Assembly (NCBI RefSeq): GCF_003334765.1
Contig: NZ_QOWT01000127.1
Length of the DNA: 386 nt
DNA from: Escherichia coli
GTDB lineage: Bacteria > Pseudomonadota > Gammaproteobacteria > Enterobacterales > Enterobacteriaceae
Direction: 5' to 3' (one strand)
Part shown: positions 1 through 386 of the stretch, one piece after another
Layout of the letters: each line of letters starts with the position of its first letter
How positions within the stretch are numbered: the first letter of the stretch is position 1
The notes under the pieces: model-generated
The model's database searches: none
What the model saw: only the letters and a program-made list of their open reading frames with translations
Told to the model about the DNA's origin: nothing
Position numbers and translations under genes: made by a program

Positions 1-386
1 TATGCCGAATCGCTGAAAAAATTTCGTCATCCAGGGAACAAGATTGGCTGCATTGTGATGAACGCCAATCCCTTTACACAGGGTCACCGTTATCTGATTC
101 AACAGGCTGCGGCACAGTGCGACTGGCTGCATCTGTTTTTAGTTAAAGAAGATTCTTCACGCTTCCCCTATGAAGACCGGCTGGATCTGGTATTAAAAGG
201 CACCGCCGATATTCCACATCTGACTGTGCATCGCGGCTCCGAATACATCATCTCCCGTGCCACGTTCCCCTGCTACTTCATTAAAGAACAGAGCGTCATC
301 AACCATTGCTACACCGAAATTGATCTGAAGATTTTCCGTCAGTACCTCGCTCCCGCGCTGGGTGTAACTCACCGCTTTGTCGGTAC
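1..386 (+). CDS. citC: [Citrate (pro-3S)-lyase] ligase (citrate lyase synthetase), internal fragment; partial at both ends, frame 1, last complete codon 382-384
   Basis: Seen in sequence: frame 1 has no stop codon over 128 codons, whereas + frames 2 and 3 contain multiple TGA/TAA/TAG (e.g. 14-16, 56-58, 95-97, 140-142, 144-146, 171-173, 282-284). The reverse strand has stops in every frame, with the longest open stretch about 64 codons. The translation (…KIGCIVMNANPFTQGHRYLIQQAAAQCDWLHLFLVKEDSSRFPYEDRLDLVLKGTADIPHLTVHRGSEYIISRATFPCYFIKEQSVINHCYTEIDLKIFRQYLAPALGVTHRFVGT) matches my recollection of E. coli CitC over essentially its whole length, including the T-x-G-H motif and the conserved GVTHRFVGTEP region. 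Codon usage is typical of Enterobacteriaceae. The identification rests on recalled homology, not a database search. Confidence 0.86.
76..87 (+). other. citC: T-x-G-H nucleotide-binding signature (T-Q-G-H; codons aca cag ggt cac) of the cytidylyltransferase-like / citrate-lyase-ligase C-terminal domain
   Basis: Seen in sequence: codons 76-87 encode TQGH, directly preceded by a hydrophobic stretch then N-A-N-P-F (GCIVMNANPF). Established knowledge: the (H/T)xGH motif following a hydrophobic beta-strand is the ATP-binding signature of the nucleotidyltransferase alpha/beta phosphodiesterase superfamily, to which the CitC C-terminal domain belongs. Confidence 0.7.

Follow-up and report, generated by a model that had tools for sequence, protein, structure and literature searches.

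The 386-nt window, that is, the whole stretch of Escherichia coli DNA analyzed here, is occupied by a single open reading frame (ORF), which is open in frame +1 over all 386 nucleotides and encodes an internal fragment of CitC, the [citrate (pro-3S)-lyase] ligase (EC 6.2.1.22; Table 1). The fragment matches the NCBIfam model TIGR00124 (1.7e-73, 247.5 bits) and the Pfam Citrate_ly_lig domain (PF08218; 1.4e-56), with model positions 1-114 aligned to amino acids 15-128 of the window, and it also scores above the cutoff of TIGR00125, the cytidylyl/adenylyltransferase domain model (43 bits; cutoff 27.7). The window is a 100% match to the citC gene of an insertion sequence (IS)-flanked island in E. 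coli strain 746. The full-length product of this island gene covers profile positions 2-335 of the 335 positions of the TIGR00124 equivalog model, at 588.4 bits against a cutoff of 262.1.

Table 1. Features of the 386-nt window (coordinates are window positions; residue numbers are those of the island CitC)
Feature	Position	Strand	Details
citC ([citrate (pro-3S)-lyase] ligase), internal fragment, island (second) copy	1..386	+	codons 132-259 of the 351-aa WP_000481771.1
Inter-domain linker helix, C-terminal part, residues 132-139	1..24	+	AlphaFold2 (AF2) secondary structure
Strand beta1, IGCIVM, residues 146-151, leading into the motif loop	43..60	+	AF2 model
Citrate_ly_lig (PF08218) domain, first 114 of 182 positions; PPAT-like Rossmann-type nucleotidyltransferase domain	43..384	+	Pfam, Foldseek
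Invariant block N-A-N-P-F-T-x-G-H, residues 152-160; phosphate-binding loop and start of helix alphaA	61..87	+	33-sequence alignment, PPAT TxGH alignment
(T/H)xGH signature, T157-Q158-G159-H160	76..87	+	ACA CAG GGT CAC, frame +1
x-position codon CAG, Gln158	79..81	+	AAT (Asn) in K-12 and the native copies examined; AAG (Lys) in 3CM native
Recombination patch, 232 bp, 14 substitutions relative to the TNGH-type island copy	78..309	+	10 synonymous codons, 2 replacements (N158Q, R204H)
Codon CAT, His204 (second amino acid change of the patch, non-conserved position)	217..219	+	CGC (Arg) in native and other island copies examined

The original prediction read nucleotides 76-87 as a TQGH tetrapeptide and took it for the T-x-G-H nucleotide-binding motif near the start of the ligase domain. 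Both the reading and the assignment are confirmed: the Pfam domain begins 11 residues upstream of the motif, and the predicted fold resembles that of phosphopantetheine adenylyltransferases (PPAT). In a phmmer search, the best sequence matches of the window among solved structures were PPATs, and the window sequence 'npfTqGH' paired column-for-column with 'dPiTyGH' of PPAT. An alignment of 33 CitC sequences from Enterobacterales and Lactobacillaceae showed that N152-A-N-P-F-T157, G159, and H160 are invariant in all 33, so that only position 158 varies within this block. The motif thus aligns within both the CitC and the PPAT families, the gene is in frame and intact, and TQGH is a genuine (T/H)xGH signature of CitC rather than a chance match of four residues. 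As in the other nucleotidyltransferase alpha/beta phosphodiesterases (PPAT, NMNAT, and cytidylyltransferases), the signature directly follows strand beta1, and the island citC is encoded together with the genes for the lyase subunits (citD, citE, and citF) and for the synthesis of the prosthetic group (citX and citG). The motif, the enzyme, and the protein accession have all been annotated before, and glutamine at a position that is free to vary is a trivial change.

An AlphaFold2 model built from the 33-sequence alignment (mean pLDDT 85.8, pTM 0.81) consists of an N-terminal alpha/beta domain extending to approximately residue 123, a linker helix (residues 128-139), and a Rossmann-like alpha/beta domain. 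When this model was compared with the PDB using Foldseek, the top matches were all PPATs (probability 1.00, target TM 0.70-0.82, 13-18% identity); neither Foldseek nor phmmer retrieved a CitC structure from the PDB copy searched. In the model, beta1 is followed by a loop (residues 152-157) and by helix alphaA, which starts at residue 158, and this places T157-Q158-G159-H160 at the predicted beta1-to-alphaA junction, the canonical site of (T/H)xGH. In the full-length protein, the ligase domain comprises residues 146-332 according to Pfam. A second conserved stretch, I303-S-A-S-R-V-R309, in which A305, V308, and R309 are invariant in the 33-sequence alignment, lies outside the window; it probably corresponds to the ISxTxxR signature that binds the ATP phosphates. 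The suggestion that the window spans the junction between an acetyltransferase-like region and the ligase domain does not hold. The matches of CitC to GNAT-type Pfam domains are weak and confined to residues 36-113, wholly upstream of the window (for example, Acetyltransf_1, E=0.013, residues 36-109), and the match to the NCBIfam model ArsN2 (6.5e-07) is far below the cutoff of that model. The GNAT-like domain occupies approximately residues 1-123, whereas the first residue of the window, 132, is already within the linker helix; the window therefore contains no sequence of this domain and covers the linker plus the initial two-thirds of the ligase domain.

The reaction catalyzed by CitC proceeds via acetyl-AMP. 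By analogy with PPAT, the backbone of the motif loop and His160 would hold the alpha-phosphate of ATP and stabilize the transition state, and acetate would be adenylated to acetyl-AMP during this contact; the acetyl group would then pass to CitD, onto the thiol of its phosphoribosyl-dephospho-CoA prosthetic group. In PPAT, the final histidine of TxGH contacts the ATP alpha-phosphate and is thought to stabilize a pentacovalent transition state, and the mutation of this histidine to alanine abolishes activity (PMC12784347). CitC acetylates the thiol of the citrate lyase prosthetic group (PMC10798043), and homology together with this literature assigns to the island protein a predicted role in the ATP-dependent acetylation of deacetyl (SH) citrate lyase. 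PPAT (CoaD) and the C-terminal domain of CitC share the fold, the location of TxGH, and the attack on the ATP alpha-phosphate (PMC12784347), but the group that is adenylated is a phosphate in PPAT and a carboxylate (acetate) in CitC, which goes on to acylate a thiol and contains the extra N-terminal GNAT-like domain.

The citC gene is nearly ubiquitous in E. coli (5,422 of the 5,426 complete genomes), but a match to the window at 99% identity or higher was found in only 13 of the 5,426, in each case at 100%, with the next best match at 96.9%. All 13 genomes carry citC in two places. In strain 746, the exact match does not lie between dpiB and citT, as it would at the canonical locus, but between a major facilitator superfamily (MFS) transporter gene and citD, with acnB following citG. 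The order of genes in this island is a divergently transcribed GntR regulator, an amidohydrolase, the MFS transporter, citC-D-E-F-X-G, and a second acnB, and the island is flanked by IS elements and lies beside a type II secretion system (T2SS)/kps capsule region. The canonical dpiBA-citCDEFXG-citT locus of the same genome is located 2.66 Mb away and encodes the K-12 protein (WP_000467705.1) with TNGH. The TQGH sequence accordingly represents a paralog of the canonical gene and is no allele of it, and its earlier description as an allelic variant was misleading: the variant belongs to a second citC on an accessory island in a strain whose native copy retains TNGH. The junction of the amidohydrolase, MFS, and citC genes that is characteristic of the island was detected in 32 of the 5,426 complete genomes.

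A gap-free alignment of the island and native cit clusters, 97.7% identical over 5,207 bp, extends from the third codon of citC to a point about 19 nt short of the citG stop codon; their flanks are unrelated. The K-12 CitC belongs to the same family as the island CitC and shares its two-domain layout, its NANPFTxGH and ISASRVR motifs, and the citDEFXG genes that follow; the two proteins are 98% identical (97% at the DNA level). They differ in that the K-12 protein has asparagine at x and arginine at its residue 205, whereas the island protein has glutamine and histidine, and in the N-terminus, which is MFGNDIFTR in K-12 and MF-NHIFTQ in the island protein. The neighborhoods differ as well, with dpiBA upstream and citT downstream of the K-12 cluster, in contrast to the MFS, amidohydrolase, and GntR genes upstream and acnB downstream in the island. 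The island encodes the same CitD and CitE proteins as K-12. Between the island and native copies, citE differs by 15 nucleotides and no amino acids, and citF by 34 nucleotides and 2 amino acids; given this predominance of synonymous substitutions, the island copy of citCDEFXG looks functional. In a search for the original donor in other genera, the island N-terminus, MFNHIFTQ, was found in none of the 120 CitC cluster representatives.

Across the CitC family, the residue at the x position is highly variable, as had been anticipated. The K-12-type gene reads ACG AAT GGT CAC, that is, TNGH, so that K-12 does have a different residue at x, as the original prediction had suspected, this residue being asparagine. 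Among the 120 CitC cluster representatives, x is N in 36, R in 36, L in 30, and H in 10 (including Salmonella enterica), followed by K, E, Y, S, and C, and is glutamine in none; in the 33-sequence alignment, position 158 is L, N, R, Q, H, K, E, Y, S, or C. Thus, at least ten residue types occur at x across CitC, and N, K, and Q occur within E. coli. The native citC of E. coli 3CM (WP_000467695.1; locus L031, 17928-18986) contains AAG at x (TKGH), and therefore the position is polymorphic at the canonical locus too. Two homologs that lack the motif, P0011 and P0096, were dismissed as sequence artefacts, the former appearing G-to-A damaged and the latter frameshifted. P0011, a 352-aa sequence from a Logan assembly with pervasive E-to-K, D-to-N, and G-to-S changes and TNSH in place of TNGH, looks damaged or hypermutated and unlike a genuine variant.

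To sample the glutamine variant more broadly, 100,044 species-representative genomes were scanned with a degenerate pattern coding for NPFTQGHR. Citrobacter sp. R56 and five Lactobacillaceae turned out to have a TQGH citC. In the Citrobacter and in four of the Lactobacillaceae (Furfurilactobacillus milii, Schleiferilactobacillus perolens, Levilactobacillus enshiensis, and Paucilactobacillus kaifaensis), all with the exact NPFTQGHR, the gene is full-length and adjacent to citDEF(XG); in the fifth, it is truncated by the contig end. Four further pattern matches, on Bacteroidota and Chromatiales contigs, showed no similarity to CitC and were set aside. At the DNA level, the Citrobacter gene is only 80% identical to the window and the lactobacillar genes are not alignable, which makes these independent occurrences of glutamine and not sources of the E. 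coli sequence. The x position is thus effectively unconstrained, and intact cit clusters have acquired glutamine there independently several times.

Within the window, only two residues distinguish the island protein from K-12 CitC and the DNA is 96-97% identical to ordinary E. coli citC, so that a simple point variant (N to Q) of the chromosomal gene might seem a sufficient explanation. We consider it highly improbable. Every genome with the exact sequence has two citC genes, and the sequence maps to the island copy, strain 746 has a TNGH native gene, and the change from AAT to CAG takes two substitutions that fall within a significant cluster of 14. This cluster became apparent in the comparison of the strain 746 island with that of Santai, which differ at 51 positions over 11.2 kb, 14 of these within 232 nt (scan statistic, 0 of 200,000 permutations). 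The 14 substitutions (12 transitions and 2 transversions) change 12 codons, 10 of them synonymously; the two replacements are AAT to CAG (N158Q), which consists of two base changes accompanied by an adjacent synonymous change, and CGC to CAT (R204H). The outer limits of the tract are citC nucleotides 426 and 889, for a length of 232-460 bp, such that the window frames it almost exactly. A dense, mostly synonymous cluster of this kind points to a short homologous-recombination tract from a diverged, functional citC, as opposed to a point mutation or a mutational burst.

Three of the 19 island copies that do not match the window exactly were read directly, those of Santai and 3CM (both type B) and of strain 10 (type C), and all three contain TNGH and R204. 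These TNGH-type islands have the same architecture and the same island-specific CitC N-terminus as the TQGH island but lack the 232-bp patch. Santai and 3CM share 99.9% identity with strain 746 over the island segment that runs from the amidohydrolase and MFS genes into the 5' end of citC, and of the 51 differences between Santai and 746 in the 11.2 kb, all but 3 lie within citC-citG. One short homologous-recombination tract would thus have brought glutamine 158, R204H, and some ten synonymous changes into the 13-genome island subgroup, and the donor would have been a functional citC diverged by about 5-6%. Elsewhere in the island, citE (L001, 13018-13597) shows 21 mismatches in 580 nt between the TQGH- and TNGH-type islands, and as the CitE proteins are identical, all of these are synonymous; this cluster is probably another recombination tract.

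Rarity of the allele is the sole reason to suspect a sequencing or assembly artefact or a decaying pseudogene, and the probability of either is practically nil, given that 13 complete genomes, each assembled independently, have the same 386 nt, with the motif region present also in a metagenome contig, that the intact ORF reaches 588 bits with the CitC equivalog model, and that most substitutions across the cluster are synonymous.

None of the genome, metagenome, and plasmid collections searched yielded the donor of the patch. Among the species representatives of Escherichia in the 100,044-genome scan, none contains the NPFTQGHR-coding pattern, and Citrobacter sp. R56 was rejected as a donor, at 79.9% DNA identity compared with the approximately 94% needed. 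The sole match of an exact 27-mer scan of metagenome contigs was another copy of the same island, and the plasmid collection yielded no TQGH allele, its matches being native-type alleles on very large records.

As to the direction of the exchange, TNGH is common to island types B and C and to every native allele examined, and on parsimony, we favor import of the patch into the 13-genome subgroup as the likely course of events. The converse history, in which the patch is an unconverted remnant of the original divergent citC of the island and the TNGH islands have been overwritten by gene conversion from native alleles, draws on several features of the cit block. Fixed sites that set the island copies apart are confined to the two extremities of the 5.2-kb block (L001, 11614-16820, compared with L003, L006, L027-L029, and L031), and polymorphisms of its interior recur in various native alleles. 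In island types A and B, citF-citX is almost identical to a native allele of the B2 type, and the island acnB is 3.2% diverged from that of K-12, near the 5-6% of the patch. Exchange between the island and native operons clearly occurs, as these shared polymorphisms indicate, and the TNGH islands might be converted ones. Nevertheless, with the TQGH type nested beside type B, at least two independent conversions would be needed in place of one import, and we regard the remnant history as rather unlikely. The TNGH island copy of 3CM also differs from the native citC of its own genome at window positions 15, 33, and 81 and so was not copied from that allele, a comparison that in itself says little about direction. 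The sites that are fixed in all island copies and absent from native ones are citC nucleotides 10-27 and 153 and positions within the final ~20 nt of the alignment. The divergence between island types A and C is 2.0% in the cit block and only 0.6% across the amidohydrolase-MFS-citC 5' segment. Taken as a whole, the pattern suggests recurrent gene conversion between the island and native cit operons.

The probable effect of the two replacements on the enzyme is judged here from natural variation. Gln158 is the first residue of alphaA, a position under no detectable constraint, and the difference between TQGH and TNGH is most likely functionally neutral; the earlier statement that x implies no functional consequence agrees with this expectation. 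At residue 204, the alignment column is similarly permissive (R14/K9/N8/H1/G1), and R204H would likewise be neutral. It could be argued that Gln158, together with His204, is adaptive and retunes the ligase for a pathway of the island, by a change in nucleotide or acyl specificity or in regulation, considering that both replacements are private to one island subgroup which comes from hosts on several continents and from several sources, and that the x residue adjoins the catalytic histidine. Yet other copies of the same island retain N158 and R204, few positions in the family are less conserved than these two, glutamine appears sporadically in unrelated CitC lineages, and the patch otherwise carries synonymous changes, the pattern that hitch-hiking on a recombination tract would produce; we give adaptation only a slim chance. 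We are, on the other hand, quite confident in the overall explanation, namely, a CitC signature with a neutral x residue, in an island paralog, with the glutamine brought in by a recombination tract.

On the opposite strand, overlap of the motif with the antisense gene nog1 (PMC4683798) was considered and rejected, since nog1 maps to the 5' region of citC, with more than 150 nt separating it from the window downstream. From the nog1 study, only the promoter fragment extends into the window (positions 1-205, minus strand), and its primer site (184-205) contains a patch substitution at position 192. The minus strand also contains a 59-aa ORF with a GTG start (window positions 193-372), which is not nog1 and shows no evidence of being a gene.

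The island of strain 746 (NZ_CP023353.1, 908984-919870; L001, 8576-19462) thus contains a second intact citCDEFXG and a second acnB but neither dpiBA nor citT. It is part of a larger accessory region (NZ_CP023353.1, 851000-900500; L004) by the T2SS (gspC-M/yghD) and group 2 kps clusters, which also contains Ag43, CbtA/YeeU toxin-antitoxin genes, and many IS remnants, a typical pathogenicity-island neighborhood. The left flank of the island in strain 10 is different, being a sugar ABC transporter cluster, and hence the cit module moves between contexts.

The upstream module of the island consists of a HutC/UTRA-type GntR regulator, a lactonase-like hydrolase of the Amidohydro_2 family, for which the best NCBIfam match is 4-sulfomuconolactone hydrolase at 8e-40, far below the cutoff, and an anion-type MFS transporter. 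The same GntR-Amidohydro_2-MFS module, without cit genes, was found in Hafnia paralvei (L022, 5623-11341) and in a metagenome contig of Intestinirhabdus alba (L020, 8324-11350), with MFS proteins 86-89% identical to that of the island. In Hafnia, the module lies directly beside the housekeeping acnB, after aceEF-lpd, an arrangement that hints at a functional link between the module and aconitase. The cit and acnB genes of the island are of the Escherichia type (97.7% and 96.8% nucleotide identity to K-12, respectively), and, with the module found elsewhere without cit genes, the island appears to be a chimera. Judging from its gene content, it may be a composite operon for some lactone or tricarboxylate substrate. 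A search for a description of the island or of such a pathway found nothing relevant in the literature collection covered. A more elaborate scenario, which we offer tentatively and consider doubtful in its entirety, is that of an undescribed composite island in which a foreign module was fused to duplicated Escherichia-type citCDEFXG and acnB, and a lactone or tricarboxylate would be converted by aconitase to citrate, to be fermented via citrate lyase; the TQGH patch would then stem from recombination with an unsampled Escherichia-like lineage that has the same pathway.

These findings indicate that what looks like a single-residue allele in a short window can mark a paralogous accessory copy and a recombination tract, and that in citC typing or variant calling, reads from the island copy would mis-map to the native gene. 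For the family, they provide a natural example of the x position of the CitC (T/H)xGH signature tolerating N, K, and Q within one species. Separately from the motif, the accessory island is a lead in its own right, as a candidate for a new substrate pathway in E. coli.
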